Assembly: GCA_964648665.1 (NCBI GenBank)
Contig: CAZYOA010000010.1
Span: 1-62,962 of the forward strand
Direction of reading: 5' to 3'
Length of the DNA stretch: 62,962 bases
Source: an uncultured Planctomycetales bacterium
GTDB taxonomy: Bacteria > Omnitrophota > Gorgyraeia > Zapsychrales > Aceulaceae
Shown here piece after piece: positions 47,097-57,330 of this stretch (position 1 is its first letter; every line of letters begins with the position of its first letter). Position numbers and translations under genes: made by a program. The notes beneath the pieces were generated by a model, which saw only the letters and a list, made by a program, of their open reading frames with translations, had not been told where the DNA came from and did no database searches.

Positions 47097-47341
47097 TTAT
47101 CTTAAAGTTCTAGCAAGACCTAGAATAATCCCAGGAAGTAAAATAGCGAATGTGATACTGCTGGGATTAAACAAAAGCTTTCCGTGTTTATTCTTTTTTT
47201 TTATTATCTTTTCGATAATTATTAATGCAATGCTGGTGACAATAAAAGCAGGATAAAAAATAATTATTACGATGTAAAATAAGATTAGTCTTATAAATAT
47301 TTCGTAACTATTTAAGTAATGTACCTACTAAAACTCGACAT
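47097..47341 (-). pseudogene. Possible small two-TM membrane protein with a single frameshift near the 5' end
   Basis: GGGAG RBS then ATG at 47341 gives MSSFSRYIT*. The adjacent frame is open as ...YLNSYEIFIRLILFYIVIIIFYPAFIVTSIALIIIEKIIKKKNKHGKLLFNPSSITFAILLPGIILGLARTLR*, with TAA directly abutting the U32 stop. The 245-nt span is one base short of in-frame. Confidence 0.3.
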
Positions 47342-47361
47342 ATATAAAAATCTCCCGCCCC

Positions 47362-47389
47362 TTGTTTTTTCGCCATTATATGCTATATT
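47362..47389 (+). promoter_or_regulatory. Putative sigma70 promoter for the subtilase gene
   Basis: TTGTTT-N16-TATATT with an extended -10 TG, about 120 nt upstream of the ATG. Confidence 0.4.
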
Positions 47390-47509
47390 TTCTGTAAATC
47401 TAAACAATAAATAGGAGATCTCTTTAGGTGCTGAGTCTGTCTCGGCGTATCTGAAAAAGATGTCTATTCCATTTCATTATATTAACAGTCTACTCACGCG
47501 AGGATTAAC

Positions 47510-50500
47510 ATGAGAAATTTTTTCATAGTCAGTGTTGTCATTATATGTGTTTTTTTGAATCTTTCAATTCCACAATATGTATTTGCTGTTTCTGATGATG
47601 TGCGTCGCACTGATGTGGTTTCTAAAGGAGCAGATCCTTTGGTTGATGCTGAGTACGGTGTCGAAGTATTTACGCAGCCAGTAGATGATTTTTTGCTTCC
47701 GAATGACTATCGAAAGGATCGTATTATAATTCGCTTTAAAGAAGGCTCTGGTCTTGGTGCTGTTGCTGCTGATTTGGTGAATGAGAAGATGAAATTTGAA
47801 ACAGTTACTGGCGATTGGGCGCTTGATAGCATTAACGAAATGTATGGTGTAGTTGCAATAAAACCGTTAATTACAAGTGAACTATTTAGTTTGCAAACAA
47901 AAAAAACAACGCGTTTTTCTTCTGATATAGCACAGGCATTAGAGATTCGGAGAAATGCTCATATTGCGACGAGTATCGTAGGTATGAATGCTCGCTATCC
48001 TGACCGCGCACGGTATGCGGATAGTGCAAAACAAATTGCCATTGCGACAAAACTTTCTAATACATTCATTGTGACATTTGATGCAGATAAAGATAACCTC
48101 CAAGAAATCAAGGCGGCATATATGCAAGATTCTGCTGTCGTAGAAGCTGAGCTGATACAAGCGGTGTATGTTAATTTTGAGCCAACGGATCCGTATTATT
48201 CATCATCAGGAAGCTGGGGGCAAGATTTTTCAGATATGTATGGTTTGCGTCCAGATTTTCTTCATTGTGGTGATCCTGTTGAAGATGAAGGTGCATGGGC
48301 GCAATCAAAAGGAGAAGGAATCGTGGTTGCGGTTATTGATAGTGGTGTTGATTATAATCATCCTGATCTTGTTGATAATATGTGGCAGGATGCAGAGGGA
48401 CATTACGGATATGATTTTGCCAATGGCGATGATAATCCTATTGATGATCATGGTCATGGAACGCATTGTGCAGGGACTATTGCTGCAGTCGAGAATGGTT
48501 TTGGAGTGATTGGGGTTGCGCCATCTGCAAAGATTATGGCAATCAAAGGTCTCAAGGCTAGTGGTAGGGGATATACGGATGTACTTTCCGCAGCCATCAT
48601 GTATGCTGTTGAAAATGGTGCTGATATATTAAGTAATTCGTGGGGTGGTGGTGGCAATTCAGGTCTTCTTACAGAGGCGTTTGATTATGCACATGCAAGT
48701 GGGTGTGTGAGTGTTGCTGCAGCGGGAAACAGTGCGCGTGATGCTGCGTATTTTACGCCTGCAGGAATACAGAGTGTTATTACTGTTGCTGCAAGTGATT
48801 CAAATCACGAACGTGCAAGCTTTTCAAATATTGGTACTAAGATAGACGTGTCTGCGCCAGGTGTTGATATCCTTTCCTTAAGAGCTGCAGGGACTGATAT
48901 GTATGGTACAGGAACTCATATTGTGAATGATGATTATTATTATGCAAGTGGAACATCAATGGCGTGTCCACATGTTGCAGGTGTTCTTGCCGTAATCAAA
49001 TCTGCTAATCCTGATTACAGTAATGAGGAATTACGTTCTGCATTGCGTGCCTCAGCTACAGACTTAGGTGCGATAGGATTTGATACCCAGTTTGGTTCTG
49101 GATTAGCGAATGCAGATGCAGCACTTGACATTGTGTCACCGATTGCTGCAAACATCTTTTCAATTGAACAGATTGATAATCAAACGATTGAGGTTCGTGG
49201 TGTTGTGTATGGAGATTCATTTAGTTCGTATTTCCTTGAATACGCAGAGTCGTTAGAAGGACCATGGATGACGGCAGACAATATTGTTCCTGGAGAAAAA
49301 CAAGGGACACTTAATCCTGACGGGAACATCAGCTATCCAGTTTTGGGTACTGTTGATCCAGAGGGATTATCTGGATTCGTGTATGTGCGTTTGACTGGGT
49401 ATGATCAAAGCAATGATTCTTATCAGGATTTCATTAATACTATTATTATTGAAGAGCAGAAGTCAGGGTGGCCAGTCAATGTGTTTGACGAGGAGCAAGG
49501 TATATCCGCTTATCCTATTTTTAGCTCACCAATGGTTGCAAATATTGATAATAGTGCTGATGGTTCAGAAGAAGTTATCGTGAATGCTATCGGCGGGTTG
49601 TTTGTTTATGATGCAAATGGGACTATCCTGAGTGGCTGGCCTAAAAATTATTTATGGCCGCAAGGGAGTGGTGGTTTTTCAACACCAGCTATTGCTGATC
49701 TAGATGGTGATGGTGATATGGAAATTATTGCAATGGGATATGATGGTTCAGGCTCTGTCGGGGATTTAACTATTTTTGGCACTAATGAGCCTGTCGCAGG
49801 ACTTCATATTTGGCATCATGATGGCAGTCGTTATAATGATCAATGGCCACAAACATTGGAAAATCATTTGCCTGGGTTACTTAGATTGACGTATCTTGGG
49901 TATTCCTCTCCCAGTGTCGGCGATATTGATGCTGATGGCGCGCAGGAGATTGTTATTGCAGTACGATATGGTGCAGGAATGGGAGGAGAAACCCGCTGTG
50001 CTCTTTTGGCATTTGAACAGGATGGCAGTTTAGTTGTTGACTCACAGAATACTACACAATGGCCGCGTTTTCTTAGTGTAAATAACATTCTCAGCGGGAG
50101 ATTGTTAGAATGCTCGCCAACGCCGTTGCTTATTGATTTGAACCATGATGGTATGCTTGAAATTGTACAAGGAGTTAATTTCAGGAATCAATCTGTTATA
50201 CCGCGAGAGTATTATTCAGAAATAAAGGTGTTTGATGCGTATGGGAATACTCCCGAAAACACGCAGTGGCCTTGGATTTCTGATACAGTGACTTTGGGTA
50301 ACAAAAATTTAGTTGCAGGAGATGTTAACGGTGACGGAGACATCGAAATTATTGCGCAGACGAGTTCTGGAGCAGTAGGATACCCTACAACGAAGATATT
50401 TTCTTGTGAAGGTGACGAGATAGCAAGTATTGGTGCTTGGGCAACGCTTTCAGCTAACTTTTCTCTTGCAGATATGAACGACGATGGGACGCCTGAAATT

Positions 50501-52666
50501 ATTTATATAACCCAAAATAGGAAATTGTATGTTTCGTCGCTAGAGGGCGATCAGCTGGTGCCATTGCCAGGGTGGCCAAAAGTGTACCAGACTGCCCTTG
50601 TATTTGGGAATACCGTTCCTTCTGCAGGTCCGAGCATTGCGGATGTGGATGGAGACGGCTACGCTGATATTGTAGTGATTGCGAATGCTGGGTCTGATAA
50701 CCCGTATGCCTCATTAAAGGCTTTTGATAGGTATGGAAATCTACTCAACGGGTGGCCTAAATATGTTCAGCCTTTTGACTTGATATATTCGCAGCCAACT
50801 ATTACAGATATGGATAATGATGGGCAGGTTGATGTTTTAGTGGGGAATCTTTTTGGGCAAGTGTTAGCGTATGGGTTGGAGTACCAGTTTAACCCTGAGG
50901 CACAAGAATGGCCAATGTTTCAGAAGAATCTCAAGCATTCAGGTGTGCATGGCGAGGAACCAGTGGTTCCGAATTATGTACCGACTGCATATGCAGGGCC
51001 TGACATTACTATTGATGAAAATATAGAGGTTGTGTTAGTTGGATCAGGATATGATCCAGATGGATTTATTGTTAATTATGCATGGGAACAAATCGATGGT
51101 CCAGAAGTGACACTTGAAAATGCGAATGAAGCGACGGCATCGTTTAGTGCTCCTGCTGTGGAGGATACGACATCTATTACATTTAAGCTTACTGTCACAG
51201 ATAATGACGATGCAACAGCATCTGATGTAGTTTTTGTGACTGTCACTAATGTAAATATGGCGCCTGTAGCTGATGCTGGTGAAGACGTAGCAGCGAATGA
51301 ACTTTCAGTAGTAACTTTAGCTGGATCTGGATATGATCCAGATGGATTCATTGTTAGTTATGCATGGAAACAAATTGACGGACCAGATGTTGTTCTTGAG
51401 AATTCGAATGAAGCAACGGTATCGTTTAGTGCTCCTGCTGTGAGTGAGCTGACAGAGTTGACATTTAAACTTACTGTTACAGATGATGACGATGTGACAG
51501 CAAGCGATGAAGTCGTTGTGATTGTCAATAATATAAATGTGGTGCCTGTAGCCAACGCAGGAGTAGATCAACAAGAGGCTTTAACATTCCCTAATATATC
51601 AGCAAGCATTATTCTTGACGGTACAGCTTCAAGCGATCCAGATGGAACTATTGAAAGTTACTTATGGACCGAAGGTGATGATCAGTTAGGTACAGGGGTA
51701 ACTCCAGCTGTAGACCTTACTGTAGGCGTTCATATAATTACATTAATAGTCACTGATAACGATGGTGCAAGTGATATTGATGATGTCGAAATAATAATTA
51801 ATCAAGCTCCAATTGCAAACGCCGGAGTAGATCAACAAGAGGCTTTAACATTCCCTAATATATCAGCAAGCATTATTCTTGACGGCACAGCTTCAAGCGA
51901 TCCAGATGGAACTATTGAAAGTTACGTATGGACCGAAGGTGATGATCAATTAGGTACAGGGGTAACTCCAACGGTAGACCTTGCTGAAGGTGTTCATACA
52001 ATTACATTAACAGTTACTGATGATGATGGTGCAATTGGCACTGATGATGTCGAAATAATAATTAATCCAGCAGGTAATCAAGTTCCAATAGCTGATGCAG
52101 GAGAAGATCAAAAAGGCTATGCATGGTATCCAATGACGTTAGATGCGACGCAGTCGTATGATCCTGATAGCGGGCCAGAACTTCTTACGTATGCATGGCA
52201 ACAGATTGATGGTCCGGTGGAGGTTATGTTTGTTCTAGATCAAGAAGGTATTATTTCTTTTGAAGCACCGTTAGTACATGAAACGACAAATTTCATATTT
52301 AGGGTTACGGTGAGTGATGGGATTGATAGCAGTGAAGACACTGTCCAGGTTTTTGTTGAACCGAATACGTTGCCACAAAAAGAACAAAGCAGGATGTTGT
52401 TTTCTGTTTATGAAAATGAAAAGTTCACTTATGATTTAACTGAAAATATTTTTGATCGAGAGACAACGCCGCTGCTAGGCTATACATGGGAGCAAGTGTC
52501 TGGTGTCCCTGTGACTGAGGGAGGAGTGCACGATGGCCAAACAATGGTTTTTGCTACACCATCAGTTGCGTCGACGCAGAATTGCATGTTTCGCGTGTTG
52601 GTCCATGATGGATCAAAAGATATTTCTTATCATATTGCCATAAGAGTATTGAATGTTGATCAATGA
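47510..52666 (+). CDS. Secreted S8 subtilase with FG-GAP/VCBS repeats and PKD-like domains
   Basis: N-terminal signal peptide and propeptide. Catalytic triad VAVIDSG, HGHGTHCAG, SGTSMACPHVAG; oxyanion AAGN. Multiple DxDGDG repeats. C-terminal P.A.AG.D...DPDG.I..Y.W repeats. Confidence 0.95.
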   Translation: MRNFFIVSVVIICVFLNLSIPQYVFAVSDDVRRTDVVSKGADPLVDAEYGVEVFTQPVDDFLLPNDYRKDRIIIRFKEGSGLGAVAADLVNEKMKFETVTGDWALDSINEMYGVVAIKPLITSELFSLQTKKTTRFSSDIAQALEIRRNAHIATSIVGMNARYPDRARYADSAKQIAIATKLSNTFIVTFDADKDNLQEIKAAYMQDSAVVEAELIQAVYVNFEPTDPYYSSSGSWGQDFSDMYGLRPDFLHCGDPVEDEGAWAQSKGEGIVVAVIDSGVDYNHPDLVDNMWQDAEGHYGYDFANGDDNPIDDHGHGTHCAGTIAAVENGFGVIGVAPSAKIMAIKGLKASGRGYTDVLSAAIMYAVENGADILSNSWGGGGNSGLLTEAFDYAHASGCVSVAAAGNSARDAAYFTPAGIQSVITVAASDSNHERASFSNIGTKIDVSAPGVDILSLRAAGTDMYGTGTHIVNDDYYYASGTSMACPHVAGVLAVIKSANPDYSNEELRSALRASATDLGAIGFDTQFGSGLANADAALDIVSPIAANIFSIEQIDNQTIEVRGVVYGDSFSSYFLEYAESLEGPWMTADNIVPGEKQGTLNPDGNISYPVLGTVDPEGLSGFVYVRLTGYDQSNDSYQDFINTIIIEEQKSGWPVNVFDEEQGISAYPIFSSPMVANIDNSADGSEEVIVNAIGGLFVYDANGTILSGWPKNYLWPQGSGGFSTPAIADLDGDGDMEIIAMGYDGSGSVGDLTIFGTNEPVAGLHIWHHDGSRYNDQWPQTLENHLPGLLRLTYLGYSSPSVGDIDADGAQEIVIAVRYGAGMGGETRCALLAFEQDGSLVVDSQNTTQWPRFLSVNNILSGRLLECSPTPLLIDLNHDGMLEIVQGVNFRNQSVIPREYYSEIKVFDAYGNTPENTQWPWISDTVTLGNKNLVAGDVNGDGDIEIIAQTSSGAVGYPTTKIFSCEGDEIASIGAWATLSANFSLADMNDDGTPEIIYITQNRKLYVSSLEGDQLVPLPGWPKVYQTALVFGNTVPSAGPSIADVDGDGYADIVVIANAGSDNPYASLKAFDRYGNLLNGWPKYVQPFDLIYSQPTITDMDNDGQVDVLVGNLFGQVLAYGLEYQFNPEAQEWPMFQKNLKHSGVHGEEPVVPNYVPTAYAGPDITIDENIEVVLVGSGYDPDGFIVNYAWEQIDGPEVTLENANEATASFSAPAVEDTTSITFKLTVTDNDDATASDVVFVTVTNVNMAPVADAGEDVAANELSVVTLAGSGYDPDGFIVSYAWKQIDGPDVVLENSNEATVSFSAPAVSELTELTFKLTVTDDDDVTASDEVVVIVNNINVVPVANAGVDQQEALTFPNISASIILDGTASSDPDGTIESYLWTEGDDQLGTGVTPAVDLTVGVHIITLIVTDNDGASDIDDVEIIINQAPIANAGVDQQEALTFPNISASIILDGTASSDPDGTIESYVWTEGDDQLGTGVTPTVDLAEGVHTITLTVTDDDGAIGTDDVEIIINPAGNQVPIADAGEDQKGYAWYPMTLDATQSYDPDSGPELLTYAWQQIDGPVEVMFVLDQEGIISFEAPLVHETTNFIFRVTVSDGIDSSEDTVQVFVEPNTLPQKEQSRMLFSVYENEKFTYDLTENIFDRETTPLLGYTWEQVSGVPVTEGGVHDGQTMVFATPSVASTQNCMFRVLVHDGSKDISYHIAIRVLNVDQ
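50990..51532 (+). repeat. Tandem pair of PKD-like units, 282-bp period
   Basis: GSGYDPDGFIV.YAW.QIDGP...LENxNEAT.SFSAPAV occurs twice; GGATC anchors at 51041 and 51323. Confidence 0.8.
51551..52067 (+). repeat. Near-identical tandem pair of PKD units, 264-bp period
   Basis: ANAGVDQQEALTFPNISASIILDGTASSDPDGTIESY...DDVEIIIN at 51551-51803 and 51815-52067, with long identical DNA stretches. Confidence 0.9.
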
Positions 52667-52786
52667 TGAATCGTAAGTAATCAAGGGCAGCAGGTCCCAA
52701 CCTAAGATGGTGCTTGGAGAATATATGAAGTAAAGTGGAAGAATGGCAAGAGGTATGGGAATGGAAATATCAAAGCAAGCTTTATC

Positions 52787-52820
52787 AAGGTTGTAGATTC
52801 GAATCCTGTCCCTGCAGCCA
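52787..52820 (+). other. Decayed tRNA 3' fragment (tRNA-fMet-like), possible att-site relic
   Basis: AAGGTTGTAGATTCGAATCCTGTCCCTGCAGCCA: T-arm with a TTCGAAT loop, acceptor 3' strand and CCA. No 5' half upstream. Confidence 0.6.
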
Positions 52821-52984
52821 ATGTAATAGCGAGAGAGTCAATGATTCAGGTTATTGGCTCTTTTTGTTTATGGTGATAAAATAATAGATGCGAATGCGAT
52901 GTCGCCGGTATTAAATAAAAACTTTCCGCATCTATTCTTCTTTTCTATTATCTTTCCGATAATTATTTAAGCAACCCCTGTTTC

Positions 52985-53410
52985 TTATAAACAACTTTCT
53001 TCATATTTCTTCATTAATATTTTATATTCTTGTCGTAATTTTTCGTATTCAACTTTCGAAGCTTCATAACGCTTTCTTTCTGATTCATACCATGCTTTAT
53101 TAGCTTTATTTTCCTTTAACTGTTTATTATACTGTTTCTCATATTCTTCATATCGCCTATTATATGTTTCTAGCTGTTTATTGTATTGTTCCTTGTACTC
53201 TTTAGATTGCTTATTATATGTTTTAAGTCGTTCTTTATATTTAGAATCTTGCTCTTCTAAAATTTTGAGAATTTTGTCAATCTTTTGGTCTTGTTTTTCT
53301 ATTTTTTTGATTAACAATGAATTATCTGATGAAGCAGTGCTAGCAAAAGCTAGCGAGGGAATAAGTAAGCCGGCTACTGCTGCGAAAAGTATGATTTTAT
53401 TTTTAAACAT
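52985..53410 (-). CDS. Small secreted coiled-coil protein (141 aa, start reassigned)
   Basis: AAGGAGG RBS precedes the ATG at 53410 (MFKNKIILFAAVAGLLIPSLAFA is a signal peptide). The mature part has YKEQYNKQL/YEKQYNKQL repeats. Confidence 0.75.
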   Translation of the reverse strand: MFKNKIILFAAVAGLLIPSLAFASTASSDNSLLIKKIEKQDQKIDKILKILEEQDSKYKERLKTYNKQSKEYKEQYNKQLETYNRRYEEYEKQYNKQLKENKANKAWYESERKRYEASKVEYEKLRQEYKILMKKYEESCL

Positions 53411-53413
53411 TTC

Positions 53414-53449
53414 AACCTCCTTTTTAATTATTCTATAACATGAATCGCC
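53414..53449 (-). repeat. 36-bp upstream element (promoter + RBS), copy 1 of 2
   Basis: AACCTCCTTTTTAATTATTCTATAACAT is identical at 53414-53441 and 53905-53932. The minus strand reads ATGTTATAGAATAATTAAAAAGGAGGTT. Confidence 0.85.
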
Positions 53450-53538
53450 TAGGTTGCCCTGCGACAAGCAATTGCATCTTTTGGCGGTTAGAAGGACTTT
53501 TAATTTCTTAATGATGTACCAGATTTGTGCCAAGTCCC

Positions 53539-53901
53539 TTATTTTTCAGACGAGCCATACAAACCTTTACTATGATTAATAAGTAAATTGTTTTGGTCCA
53601 TCAAGAATACTGTTGTACATAAGATAGTAAACCCTAAAATCCAACAGAAAAGCGTGACAACAAGCATCTTTTCGACTTTTCTTGATATAATTTTATATTC
53701 TGGATTTTTTTGAGTCAACTCTCGGACTATTCTAAGCTTTTCTTTTAGAGAATAAAAAATCCAAAAAGGTGAATCTTCTTCTTTGCATACGAAAATGAAT
53801 TTTTGAAGATTATAGTATAAAAAAACTATAAAGGGCACGACAAAAACTAAAATTGCATAAGGAATAACAAATGGTGTTGGGTCTAGCGGGAATATCTCCA
53901 T
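53539..53901 (-). CDS. Small two-TM membrane protein, unknown function (120 aa, start reassigned)
   Basis: AAGGAGG RBS before the ATG at 53901 (MEIFPLD...). Two hydrophobic helices flank a basic loop. Confidence 0.75.
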   Translation of the reverse strand: MEIFPLDPTPFVIPYAILVFVVPFIVFLYYNLQKFIFVCKEEDSPFWIFYSLKEKLRIVRELTQKNPEYKIISRKVEKMLVVTLFCWILGFTILCTTVFLMDQNNLLINHSKGLYGSSEK

Positions 53902-53904
53902 CGT

Positions 53905-53940
53905 AACCTCCTTTTTAATTATTCTATAACATAAATCGTC
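53905..53940 (-). repeat. 36-bp upstream element (promoter + RBS), copy 2 of 2
   Basis: Matches 53414-53449 (28 bp identical core). Confidence 0.85.
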
Positions 53941-54277
53941 ACAGGTAAAGAAAATCCCCACTATTACCAAAAGACAATGAATAATTAAGAAATTATGAGA
54001 ATAAACAAAGGTACCCTGTAATTAACAAGATTTCTTTGCGTAGAATAAGCTAATATTTCAACAATAAACATACGGTCGTTTATTTAGTTTAAGCATCAGC
54101 GTCTAGGAACGCTTCTAAGCGTCTAGTTGTTTAAGATGTAGAAAGATATGTATGTGTCAACAGCGTGCAGCAGGACGTAACCTCAAGCGAATGAAGGCTA
54201 GTCTTTAGTGTGTTTGTCGAGGAGGATAGAGAAATAGTACATATAAAAGTAAGGGTTCCCATTGGCTCAGAGGGCTT

Positions 54278-54296
54278 CCCACCCATCCCCTGCCCC
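54278..54296 (-). other. Canonical G-quadruplex motif
   Basis: The minus strand reads GGGG-CA-GGGG-AT-GGG-T-GGG in an otherwise very AT-rich region. Confidence 0.7.
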
Positions 54297-54310
54297 TATG
54301 TATATTATAA

Positions 54311-54363
54311 ACCAACACACTGGATTAATAACATTTTTAAGGATTCAAGGTTAACCATGTTAC
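54311..54363 (-). repeat. ~54-bp intergenic array repeat, copy 1 of 4
   Basis: ACCAACACACTGGATTAATAACATTTTTAAGGATTCAAGGTTAACCATGTTAC, followed on the minus strand by TATAAT (54304-54309). Confidence 0.85.
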
Positions 54364-54735
54364 TTATAAACTCTTATTCTTAAAGCACTCGTAGCCTTTT
54401 ACAGGATTTCTACAATAATCGGAAATCCTTTCCTGTTCCATAAGAATATGCCCACGATGCACATTATTCAATCGTATGCAATTACAAACAACAAGCAGAA
54501 TTGTTATTGTCCAATAAATAAATATGAACTGAAAGTTTTTAGTTCTTTTGAAGGATACAATAATGCCAAAAAAAACTAGCGAACTACTGATAATCGCAAG
54601 CATGGAATAATTCTTTATTAATGTGTCTAAAATGTAACTACCAGAGCGTGGCGAATAAGCCATGCTTAAATAAAATGTTATCAATCCTGTTAAAATACAA
54701 AAAATAGCAATAAAGCTAGTGAGGAATTTCTTCAT
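54364..54735 (-). CDS. Small three-TM membrane protein, unknown function (probably leaderless)
   Basis: 123 aa with three hydrophobic helices and a C-terminal Cys pair. The ATG lies 6 nt after a TGaTATAAT box and there is no RBS. Confidence 0.75.
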   Translation of the reverse strand: MKKFLTSFIAIFCILTGLITFYLSMAYSPRSGSYILDTLIKNYSMLAIISSSLVFFGIIVSFKRTKNFQFIFIYWTITILLVVCNCIRLNNVHRGHILMEQERISDYCRNPVKGYECFKNKSL

Positions 54736-54748
54736 ATTTTTATTATAT

Positions 54749-54801
54749 CACCACACGCTAAATTATATATACTTTTAGAAAAGGGATGGTAACTAGTTTA
54801 C
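54749..54801 (-). repeat. ~54-bp intergenic array repeat, copy 2 of 4 (most diverged)
   Basis: CACCACACGCTAAATTATATATACTTTTAGAAAAGGGATGGTAACTAGTTTAC. It overlaps the stop of 54798..55184. Confidence 0.7.
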
Positions 54802-55184
54802 TTTGTTGCTTTGAGACGGTTATCTTTCTCAAACTCTATAATTTTAAGAATTAGATAGAGTATTCCTCCAGGGAGAAGAGCAAAGACAAAAATAATACCT
54901 TCCGTCTGAACTACTTCGTGTTGAGCAAGGTTATTCGAACATCCTATGATAACAGGAATGGCGTATCCCACTAAAGCAGCTTCTAGGGTTCGAAACCGAT
55001 ATGCTACGAAGAATGTTATTGCGATGAGAATGAGTGGAGGTATTAATATTTTTAGTAAGACTATTCCAATTCCGTCATAGATAGGAACGCTCATTTCTCT
55101 TAATAGTGGCAAAAGTTGGAGCGTAAAGATGAATGTGGAAATAAATACAAAGAGCATCTTTAGAAGCTTCTTGAAAATATTCAT
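54798..55184 (-). CDS. Small four-TM membrane protein, unknown function
   Basis: 128 aa, four hydrophobic segments, CCTAGGAGGAAA RBS. Confidence 0.75.
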   Translation of the reverse strand: MNIFKKLLKMLFVFISTFIFTLQLLPLLREMSVPIYDGIGIVLLKILIPPLILIAITFFVAYRFRTLEAALVGYAIPVIIGCSNNLAQHEVVQTEGIIFVFALLPGGILYLILKIIEFEKDNRLKATK

Positions 55185-55213
55185 TATTTCCTCCTAGGTT
55201 GCTTTTATTGTAT

Positions 55214-55267
55214 CACCCACACGCTGAATTAATAACATTTTTAAGAAACTAGAGGCAACTAGTTTAC
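55214..55267 (-). repeat. ~54-bp intergenic array repeat, copy 3 of 4
   Basis: CACCCACACGCTGAATTAATAACATTTTTAAGAAACTAGAGGCAACTAGTTTAC, followed on the minus strand by TGaTACAAT. Confidence 0.85.
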
Positions 55268-55298
55268 CCGCTCTCTAAATTATAATAACTTTATGAGA

Positions 55299-55532
55299 TT
55301 AGTCTTTTTTATCAGAAGCTTTGAACATCTCAGGGAAAACTTTCATAATAAACACTGTGATTATAAAAACTAAAAAGAAATTCGAAAAAATGAGTGTACC
55401 ACTTCTCCAGTTTGGGATTACAATGGCGAAAATGATTTTTTTAGTGAGGTGCATTAATCCTCCAATATTCAGCAGATACATTGCAAATATTGTCCACTCC
55501 TGCGTTTTCCATCTTTTCATTGGACTGGTCAT
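55299..55532 (-). CDS. Small two-TM membrane protein, unknown function
   Basis: 77 aa, with the same CCTAGGAGGAAA RBS as the neighbouring gene. Confidence 0.65.
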   Translation of the reverse strand: MTSPMKRWKTQEWTIFAMYLLNIGGLMHLTKKIIFAIVIPNWRSGTLIFSNFFLVFIITVFIMKVFPEMFKASDKKD

Positions 55533-55580
55533 GTTTCCTCCTAGGCGATGGTTAGTAATATTTTATTTTACATCAGTTTT

Positions 55581-55635
55581 AACCCACACGCTGAACTAAT
55601 AACATTTTTAAGGATTTAGAGGTTAACCATGTTAC
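55581..55635 (-). repeat. ~54-bp intergenic array repeat, copy 4 of 4
   Basis: AACCCACACGCTGAACTAATAACATTTTTAAGGATTTAGAGGTTAACCATGTTAC, nearly identical to copy 1. Confidence 0.85.
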
Positions 55636-55766
55636 TTGCCAGGAAAGGAAAAGCGACAGATGGAATAATTATTTTCCAAGATGAATTCATTATAAATTTT
55701 CCTTTAAAATCATTATAAGCTAAAGTTGTGATTAAGAAAACAATGCATTGTAAATAATTGTATTAT

Positions 55767-57293
55767 TTACCACATTCGATCTAGTGATCGATATTGAATA
55801 GCTTCAGAAATATGTTCTGGCAGGATTTCTTTTTGTTGATCTAAGTCGGCAATGGTTCGCGCTACTTTTAAGATTTTATTATGTGCTCGAGCAGATAGGC
55901 TCAATTCATCGATGGCAACTTTAAGCAGATCTTGTGATTCCTGGGAAACACAGCAGAAAGCTTTGATTTGACGATTTTGCATTTGAGCGTTGGAAAATAC
56001 TTTTGTATCAACAAATCTTTTGTTTTGAATTTCTCGCGCGGCAACAGTTCTTTTCTTGATATCAGCTGACGATTCTCTGTGCTTGTCAGAAAATAAATCT
56101 TGTGATTTTAAGGATGGAACTTCGAGATGAATATCTATGCGGTCTAAAAGAGGGCCTGAAATCTTAGATAGATATTTTTGAATTTTTTGCGGTGTGCAAT
56201 GACATTCTTTCTTGGGATCCGTATACCAGCCACACGGGCATGGGTTCATCGCAGAAACAAGCATGAATTTAGATGGAAATTTCACAGTTTTATGGGCTCT
56301 AGCGATATGAACGCAATGATCTTCAAGGGGTTGTCTGAGTGCTTCAAGGACATTTTGATTAAATTCAGGCAGTTCGTCTAGAAATAGAATGCCGTTATGT
56401 GCAAGGCTGACTTCGCCGGGCCTGGGAATAGTCCCTCCACCGACTAAAGCAGCATCACTTGCGGTGTGATGAGGACAGCGAAAAGGGCGCTTGCTAATAT
56501 TTTTTAGATTTGCATCGATTAATCCAGATGCTGAGTGAATTTGGGCGGTTTCTAAAGCTTCGGCGATAGTTAAATTTGGTAATATTGTTGCAAGTCTTTT
56601 TGCAAGCATCGTTTTTCCGCTTCCAGGTGGACCGATTAGAAGAACGTTGTGTCCACCTGCAGCAGCGACTTCTAATCCTCTTTTAACATGCGATTGGCCT
56701 TTGACTTCTTGAAAATCGATATCATATGAGCTGGATTGATTGAATATTTCTTCGATGTTTATTTTAAAAGGTTTTATAGAGCTTGGATCTTGAAGAAAAT
56801 GAACAGTTTGCTTTAATGATTGAACAGGAAAAACATCTAAATTATTGGCAAGAGCTACTTCATGAGCATTCTTTTCTGGGACAATAATACCGTCAAATTT
56901 CTTCTTGGATGCACGCATAGCAATAGAGAATGCACCTTTGACAGGCTCAATCTCACCGCCTAAAGAAAGCTCGCCTAAGATAATATATTTTTTAAGATTT
57001 GATATTGTTATTGTTTGATTTGAATTTAAGATACCAAGGGCAATGGCTAGATCAAAGAAGGGACCTTCTTTTTTGATATCACCTGGAGATAGATTAACTG
57101 TTATTCTTTGAGCGGGAAACTTATAGCCGCTATTTTTTATGGCAGAACGAACGCGTTCTTTGCTTTCTTTAACAGCTGGATCTGGAAGCCCAACAATAAT
57201 AATGCAGGGAAGACCGCGAGAAATATCAACTTCAACTCTAATAAGGGTAGCTTCTAAGCCGGAAAGACCAAAACTGTAAATTTTTGAAAGCAT
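55767..57293 (-). CDS. comM: YifB/ComM Mg-chelatase-related AAA+ ATPase
   Basis: MLSKIYSFGLSG, GLPDPAVKESKERV, NLSPGDIKKEG, GELSLGG, GPPGSGKTMLA, RCPHHTAS, GEVSLAHNGILFLDELPEF, MNPCPCG, SGPLLDRID. The start was moved to MLSK at 57293. Confidence 0.93.
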   Translation of the reverse strand: MLSKIYSFGLSGLEATLIRVEVDISRGLPCIIIVGLPDPAVKESKERVRSAIKNSGYKFPAQRITVNLSPGDIKKEGPFFDLAIALGILNSNQTITISNLKKYIILGELSLGGEIEPVKGAFSIAMRASKKKFDGIIVPEKNAHEVALANNLDVFPVQSLKQTVHFLQDPSSIKPFKINIEEIFNQSSSYDIDFQEVKGQSHVKRGLEVAAAGGHNVLLIGPPGSGKTMLAKRLATILPNLTIAEALETAQIHSASGLIDANLKNISKRPFRCPHHTASDAALVGGGTIPRPGEVSLAHNGILFLDELPEFNQNVLEALRQPLEDHCVHIARAHKTVKFPSKFMLVSAMNPCPCGWYTDPKKECHCTPQKIQKYLSKISGPLLDRIDIHLEVPSLKSQDLFSDKHRESSADIKKRTVAAREIQNKRFVDTKVFSNAQMQNRQIKAFCCVSQESQDLLKVAIDELSLSARAHNKILKVARTIADLDQQKEILPEHISEAIQYRSLDRMW

Positions 57294-57330
57294 AAACCTA
57301 TACTTTGTTTGTGGGGACGCAAGCATAAAT

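Follow-up and report, generated by a model that had tools for sequence, protein, structure and literature searches.

Organization of the island

The window (the whole 62,962-nt stretch of DNA analysed here) belongs to the genome of an uncultured Omnitrophota bacterium, assembled to 1.65 Mb in 32 contigs with a GC content of 35%. On its minus strand, comM (57326..55767) is followed by genes of 77, 128 and 123 aa, by copy 1 of an array repeat, by a gap of ~330 nt without a gene, and then by genes of 120 and 141 aa. The 77-, 128- and 123-aa genes encode unrelated small membrane proteins, and each has a repeat of ~50–80 nt upstream of it; these are the other three copies of the array repeat. Copy 1 (54375..54298, minus strand) comprises a small hairpin past the stop codon of the 123-aa gene, a conserved core (54311-54351) and the hexamer pair TTATTA-16-TATAAT. 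Beyond the gap, the 120-aa gene (53539-53901, minus strand) encodes a protein with two transmembrane (TM) segments, and the 141-aa gene (52985-53410, minus strand) a signal-anchored coiled-coil protein. The two genes have in common a 34-nt promoter/RBS leader (TTTACC-17-TAGAAT), of which the copy before the 120-aa gene (53905..53938, minus strand) bounds the non-coding unit on its downstream side and the second stands before the 141-aa gene. The 141-aa protein weakly matches Rz-like spanins over nearly its full length (phrog_89, E = 6e-5), an assignment that is uncertain; its coiled coil gives promiscuous matches in PADLOC too, where nothing meaningful was returned for the small array proteins. 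Downstream of this gene lies a strong hairpin (52876-52936, minus strand; AATAGATGCG...CGCATCTATT) of −15.5 kcal/mol as DNA (z = −3.2, with 0 of 200 shuffles as good), which probably serves as the terminator of the entire minus-strand array.

The initial annotation of the gene-free segment had pointed to a perfect −10 hexamer firing into a G-quadruplex (G4) motif with no ORF behind it, and to a hairpin, an inverted repeat and a direct repeat, all of which are present in the sequence. The hexamer, TATAAT, is at 54309..54304 (minus strand); it has no TG extension, and its −35 element is weak (TTATTA, with a 16-nt spacer). A start ~7 nt past the −10 box would fall on A54297 or G54296, and the G4 motif GGGGCAGGGGATGGGTGGG occupies 54296..54278 on the non-template strand, at the predicted 5′ end of the transcript. 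The sole reading frame is an ORF of 51 codons (54286..54131, minus strand), whose ATG falls in the alignment at the start-codon position of the sister cassettes and which was judged to be non-coding. Further in, the AT-rich hairpin AATAAAC-N8-GTTTATT lies at 54063..54084 (minus strand), the inverted repeat ACGCTT-CT-AAGCGT at 54109-54122, and the direct repeat AGCGTCTAG at 54098 and 54118; read on the minus strand, two CTAGACGCT boxes with a spacing of 20 nt (54098..54126) flank the palindrome ACGCTT-AG-AAGCGT.

A putative promoter in the array repeat

Alignment of the four repeat copies gives −10 boxes of TATAAT (copy 1), TGaTACAAT (copy 2), TGaTATAAT (copy 3) and TAAAAC (copy 4), and in copies 2 to 4 an RBS or ATG follows 6–40 nt past this box. 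A bare TATAAT is unremarkable in this genome, where it occurs 1.05 times per kb, with 11 instances on the minus strand of the 3.1-kb island, and a generic two-hexamer promoter scan performed at chance level (19 sites vs. 19.3 in shuffles), leaving out the copy 1 site because its −35 is only TTATTA. What sets the copy 1 hexamer apart is its placement at the 3′ end of a repeat, at the position homologous to the extended boxes of copies 2 and 3, which are of the form TGnTAYAAT, a motif found only 159 times genome-wide. Neither the rest of the genome nor seven relatives yielded further copies of the repeat; matches on contigs C6, C2 and C13 look like chance and lie outside any such array. Since copy 1 is paralogous to three modules that directly precede ORFs, a start at A54297 or G54296 can reasonably be expected, and copy 1 is described here as a putative sigma-70-type promoter by paralogy, although sigma-70-type rules may not hold in Omnitrophota. 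No intrinsic terminator was found on the sense (minus) strand of the segment.

In the alignment, the stretch of copy 1 past the −10 box (CATAGGGGCAGGGGATG) corresponds to the RBS-ATG leaders found in copies 2 and 4 (CCTAGGAGGAAATAATG), so that the G-runs may derive from a degenerate ribosome-binding leader. In copy 3 (54735-54747, minus strand), the end of TGaTATAAT is separated by 6 nt, with no RBS, from the ATG of the 123-aa gene, so that translation of this gene would be from a leaderless mRNA.

The G-quadruplex motif

The four runs of at least three G residues in GGGGCAGGGGATGGGTGGG all lie on the non-template strand, as in a pilE-type G4 tract, and are separated by loops of 2, 2 and 1 nt; in the sequence the TATAAT ends 7 nt before the first of them. 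Measured against 40 second-order Markov simulations of the genome, G4 motifs with loops of ≤7 nt are in excess (4 found vs. 0.45 expected), and GGGGCAGGGGATGGGTGGG is the only one with loops of ≤3 nt (0.05 expected). One of the other three is located within a coding frame (C3:130513), and the remaining two are identical and lie on contig C4. With G4 energies included, ViennaRNA assigns the oligonucleotide −19.4 kcal/mol and places the G4 in the minimum free energy (MFE) structure of every 5′ fragment tried, 7–9 kcal/mol better than canonical pairing. The motif is real, physically plausible and statistically unusual for a genome of 35% GC, and it would probably fold in vitro. It is absent from the homologous segment of a congeneric species, G001, described below, where an 8-bp hairpin occupies the equivalent 5′ end, and the first 65 nt of the segment, its G-rich part, are only 37% identical between the two. 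The comparison identifies the G4 as a species-specific feature of the putative 5′ end rather than a conserved functional core, and because it is not conserved it is not, on its own, an indication of a new mechanism.

Coding potential and predicted structure

The segment is truly non-coding. All six frames have negative codon-usage scores and are interrupted by stop codons, as are the six frames of the G001 homologue, and mismatches between the two sequences are spread evenly over the codon positions (26/27/27). The 51-codon ORF scores −0.13, below every neighbouring gene.

The initial annotation had also called the segment structured, which is not borne out by folding. The 361-nt RNA has a predicted MFE of −79.1 kcal/mol against −75.6 ± 5.0 kcal/mol for its shuffles (z = −0.72), 21 of 100 of which fold as well, and the G001 homologue likewise lacks excess folding (z = −0.71), so that neither sequence folds beyond its shuffled controls as a structured non-coding RNA would. 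Folded jointly, the two homologues give a weak consensus (−12 kcal/mol over 329 columns), and with no more than two sequences covariation is uninformative. The Rfam search that had been called for was run with the covariance models of Rfam 15; no family matched at its gathering score, and what appeared at E ≤ 10 was noise (RatA at 21 bits, rli28 at 20 bits).

A homologue in a congeneric species

Only one true homologue was detected by BLAST in a search that covered 41 relatives, 401 genomes from the phylum and all 168 from the order: a segment at ~540-885 of contig C23 of the congener G001, 70% identical over 159 nt (pairwise E = 5e-10). The other matches, obtained with both homologues as queries, were chance matches of 22–38 nt in AT-rich sequence. 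Identity varies along the alignment, from 63% in the repeat and promoter and 37% in the first 65 nt to 63% in a core (54060..54232, minus strand) and 56% in a weakly conserved tail (53970..54059, minus strand) that carries a terminal CCTTTGTTTATTCT. The core holds the identical runs CTCCTCGA.AAACACA (54208-54223), TTCCTAGACGCTGAT (54095-54109) and TAAATAAACGACCG (54073-54086), and its global identity exceeds the 46.5 ± 4.4% of shuffled controls. In G001 the AT-rich hairpin keeps its stem unchanged around a loop of 16 nt. Two TAGACGCTG boxes are present there as well, of which just one is positionally conserved, and genome-wide the box motif shows no enrichment (6 found vs. 5.4 expected).

The core is homologous between the two species, but comparison with near-neutral sequence does not show it to be under strong constraint. 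In syntenic regions of the same genome pair, third-codon positions are 50–61% identical and intergenic DNA 42–75%; the 63–70% of the core lies only slightly above the former and within the range of the latter, so that purifying selection is not demonstrated. The layout is kept in G001, where an operon of small membrane proteins leads to a promoter-like repeat and then to ~300 nt of non-coding sequence, and the segment is the only DNA common to the window island and the G001 loci compared. Searches with blastn against 50,697 phage records returned no match to it, and scans for two conserved-block patterns over genome, viral (IMG/VR) and metagenome contigs gave 0 matches. No viral relatives of the G001 small terminase (terS) or of the 120-aa protein were found, and an exact look-up of the 115-aa protein of the G001 operon found no record.

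Mobile-element context

In two other congeners (G002 and G003) comM directly adjoins the U32/GT-C genes, and the island is absent. The same interval (47100-55766) holds 8.6 kb in the window and 14 kb of other genes in G001, and it is an insertion hotspot. In the window it contains a subtilase gene of 43% GC, a degenerate 3′ fragment of tRNA-fMet and the array of small genes; terS, a replication gene and an integrase are all absent from the island. The tRNA-fMet fragment (52787-52820, plus strand) is a diverged copy of the 3′ half of this tRNA, with ~6 mismatches in 34 nt. The genome's intact tRNA-fMet gene lies at the extreme end of contig C3 (145350-145424), where it is cut off, and the assembly may therefore have broken at the tRNA repeat. 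Only two tyrosine recombinases, of 288 and 296 aa and both XerC/D-like, are encoded in the genome, which is 88% complete. A Xer-dependent dif-like (IMEX) site of 28 bp, in which XerC and XerD arms would flank a centre of 6 bp, was considered and rejected, since only the centre ATGTATATTAT matches and 15 of the 28 positions differ from E. coli dif.

The G001 homologue lies within an element of ~15.5 kb at the 3′ end of tRNA-Leu(caa), split over two contigs (C30:118216-129946 and C23:1-4165; loci L037, L048 and L005). At the tRNA-Leu(caa) site of the window, GT2 is followed directly by tRNA-Leu and tRNA-Ala. Past tRNA-Leu, G001 contig C30 encodes an integrase (phrog_1, E = 7e-40), a DNA invertase (phrog_125) and lipoproteins, together with two small ORFs that may form an XRE-like HTH pair. 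C30 and C23 share 126 identical bases where the one ends and the other starts; an alternative continuation follows these 126 nt at the C30 end, suggesting population variants at the junction. C23 begins with the final genes of the small membrane-protein and lipoprotein operon (206, 116, 88, 86 and 115 aa), followed by the repeat and the segment, and convergent to all of these are terS (PF03592, phrog_51), a gene whose product weakly resembles DnaD, one for a cold-shock protein and an ORF of 284 aa. At L005:4147-4163, just before GT2, 17 nt of the tRNA-Leu 3′ end recur as a direct repeat. With many lipoprotein genes, terS and a DnaD-like gene, yet no capsid or tail genes, the G001 element resembles a phage satellite. 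The G001 copy is therefore bounded by att repeats and accompanied by an integrase; the window copy sits in a hotspot beside a degenerate tRNA-fMet fragment and has no integrase. The possibility that the segment is a recognisable phage or IS remnant, which the initial annotation had named as a reason to abandon its reading, is borne out in part, in that the homologue lies in an integrated, phage-satellite-like element.

Interpretation of the segment

The gene-free piece recurs in the element of the sister species and the G4 does not, and for this reason the segment is most likely an ordinary non-coding transcript of a mobile island, not a recombination switch. We tentatively favour a promoter-driven, untranslated unit of the island that would serve as a small RNA (sRNA) or a long leader. 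Copy 1 would act as a sigma-70-type promoter (TTATTA-16-TATAAT) with its start at A54297 or G54296, and the RNA would fold stably at its 5′ end (into a G-quadruplex of three layers here, into the 8-bp hairpin in G001), chiefly as a protection of that end; in both species a stable 5′ structure is predicted at the putative start. From there the RNA would traverse the conserved core and, with no terminator on the minus strand, probably extend into the 120- and 141-aa genes, the read-through product being either an sRNA precursor or a long leader. The initial annotation's suggestion of an sRNA in a cassette slot survives as the best reading, given that paralogous promoter modules stand before the neighbouring genes and that the unit recurs behind small membrane-protein genes; the excess structure and the Rfam match that might have gone with it were not found. 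The analysis adds to it a context: the comM/U32 hotspot, the 15.5-kb tRNA-Leu element of the sister species and cassette-type relatives of the 120-aa gene. Omnitrophota is a phylum that has no cultured members, and we know of no description of its non-coding RNAs or of control regions of its mobile elements. The segment, if transcribed, would be a first candidate and would provide a handle on the exchange of small-membrane-protein arrays among Omnitrophota.

Two other accounts deserve weight beside a transcribed unit. It is rather unlikely that the segment is inert, a dead cassette or an old 3′ region with a promoter module that has persisted in the two lineages by descent or through fairly recent transfer and does nothing of its own. 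Its identity to G001 is near the neutral level (third-codon positions 50–61%, intergenic DNA up to 75%), the alignment of CATAGGGGCAGGGGATG with the RBS-ATG leaders looks like a former ORF start, neither homologue gives a structure signal (z = −0.72 and −0.71), and the island itself looks decayed, having no integrase and a degenerate tRNA-fMet 3′ fragment. An inert remnant would require the ORF to be dead in both species, however, and identical runs of 15 and 14 nt lie past the G001 stop codon; all other genes of both islands have been replaced while the segment was kept, and small genomes (here 1.65 Mb) are generally expected to purge junk. A role of the core as a cis-acting DNA site of the element, such as pac/cos, a replication origin or an operator cluster at the TAGACGCT boxes, we consider unlikely. 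The G001 segment abuts the terS stop codon 1.3 kb from the DnaD-like loader, two TAGACGCT(G) boxes and the invariant AT-rich hairpin stem occur in both species, as does a GC-rich patch within the AT-rich spacer that could be a cleavage or R-loop region at the 5′ end, and the segment is the sole sequence common to two otherwise unrelated islands. Set against this, the window island is devoid of terS, replication gene and integrase in a genome whose only recombinases are XerC/D-like, only one of the two boxes is positionally conserved and their motif occurs at chance frequency genome-wide (6 found, 5.4 expected), the GC-rich patch is not conserved in sequence (37% identity), and no counterpart appeared in the 50,697 phage records or the IMG/VR pattern scans.

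The remaining explanations fare worse. That the 51-codon ORF (54286..54131) is a real small protein would fit its Shine-Dalgarno-like AGGGG 6 nt upstream of the ATG, the alignment of that ATG with the starts of the sister cassettes, and an ORF of 33 codons at the equivalent place in G001. This is nevertheless extremely improbable: the codon score of −0.13 is below that of all neighbouring genes, the N-terminal halves of the two products are dissimilar and their lengths differ (51 vs. 33 codons), the DNA alignment needs out-of-frame gaps, conservation peaks past the G001 stop codon, and there is no match elsewhere in the genome. Very unlikely is an R-loop or G-quadruplex formed by transcription from the repeat promoter that would serve as an initiator for the island, either priming replication after excision or creating a break that captures cassettes. 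R-loop/G4 priming of replication is exemplified by the ColE1 and mitochondrial CSBII origins, and if this reading were true the element would be the first of its kind described in Omnitrophota. The initial annotation had also proposed, by a speculative analogy with Neisseria, a G4 recombination initiator. In a model of this type, transcription opens the duplex, the G-rich non-template strand folds, and recombination varies a membrane-gene array. At pilE in N. gonorrhoeae, an sRNA starts within the G4 sequence and forms an RNA-DNA hybrid on the C-rich strand (PMC3547852). The geometry here is like that of the published system (PMC3547852), with the predicted start at the first G-run and the G-rich strand as the non-template strand, and the motif is rare by chance expectation (1 found vs. 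0.05 expected) and predicted to be stable. Yet tblastn and blastp searches with all five small proteins found no paralogue of the array genes in the genome or the array, which leaves no donor repertoire; the G4 is missing from the only homologue; gene order is the same on eight public contigs; and the repeats are direct, so that recombination between copies would only delete. With the G4 absent from the homologue, no silent or donor copies, and no rearrangement in the eight public contigs, the Neisseria-type model fails three of its defining features (PMC3547852); it is largely refuted, and the chance that it holds here is minimal.

The 123-aa and 120-aa proteins were found on all eight of these contigs with unchanged neighbours, though the contigs are consensus assemblies in which rare variants could be hidden. 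The two assemblies that were read are 100% identical to the window between the subtilase stop and comM (52667-55766), and over 8.4 kb they differ from it solely inside the PKD repeats of the subtilase. Against an ENA assembly of the same population there are only seven substitutions, clustered at 51193-51244 inside these repeats, and they look like gene conversion between PKD repeat units that are 92% identical.

Comparison with other systems

Like pilE, the locus has a G4 on the non-template strand and a promoter placed for a start at the G-runs; unlike pilE, it lacks an expression locus with silent copies, its G4 is not conserved, and the sequence nearby does not vary. Other parallels are offered by phage and integron biology. 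Morons and prophage-borne small RNAs or leaders, such as the DicF locus of the Qin prophage, resemble the segment as it is interpreted here: an autonomous, promoter-driven non-coding unit between unrelated accessory genes that travels with the element and not with the host backbone. The window unit differs in lacking a terminator, detectable structure and a known target, in its uncultured Omnitrophota host, and in lying in a decayed island without an integrase. Where a moron has its own promoter and terminator, the promoter here is deduced from paralogous modules, and no sense-strand terminator was found. The pR′-6S late leader of lambda, which lies upstream of the lysis genes, provides a second parallel, as here too a few hundred bases of untranslated sequence lie between a putative promoter and the genes for a two-TM protein and a weakly spanin-like, signal-anchored coiled-coil protein. 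The window differs from lambda in having no Q-like antiterminator, terminator or endolysin, and in G001 no lysis genes follow the unit, which is convergent with terS.

ORF-less cassettes occur in integron arrays, and the island likewise has a slot with no ORF, in an array whose genes are small, unrelated, all in one direction and mostly for membrane proteins. The window array was nonetheless rejected as an attC array or integron (CALIN). Its spacers (the four repeats and the spacer between the 120- and 141-aa genes) are no more stably folded than their shuffles (z = +0.98 to −1.0), and no integron integrase (IntI) was found in the genome (88% complete); the repeats differ from attC sites in being conserved in sequence and in carrying putative promoters, and they have no attC folds. 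Homologues of the 120-aa protein, 38–45% identical, are found on short metagenome contigs (L051, L054 and L056) beside other small membrane proteins, and the spacers next to them are GC-rich with CCTAAC...GTTAGG ends and form attC-like hairpins (z = −1.7 to −2.8). The window array itself is not an attC array, but its gene pool may be shared with integron cassettes.
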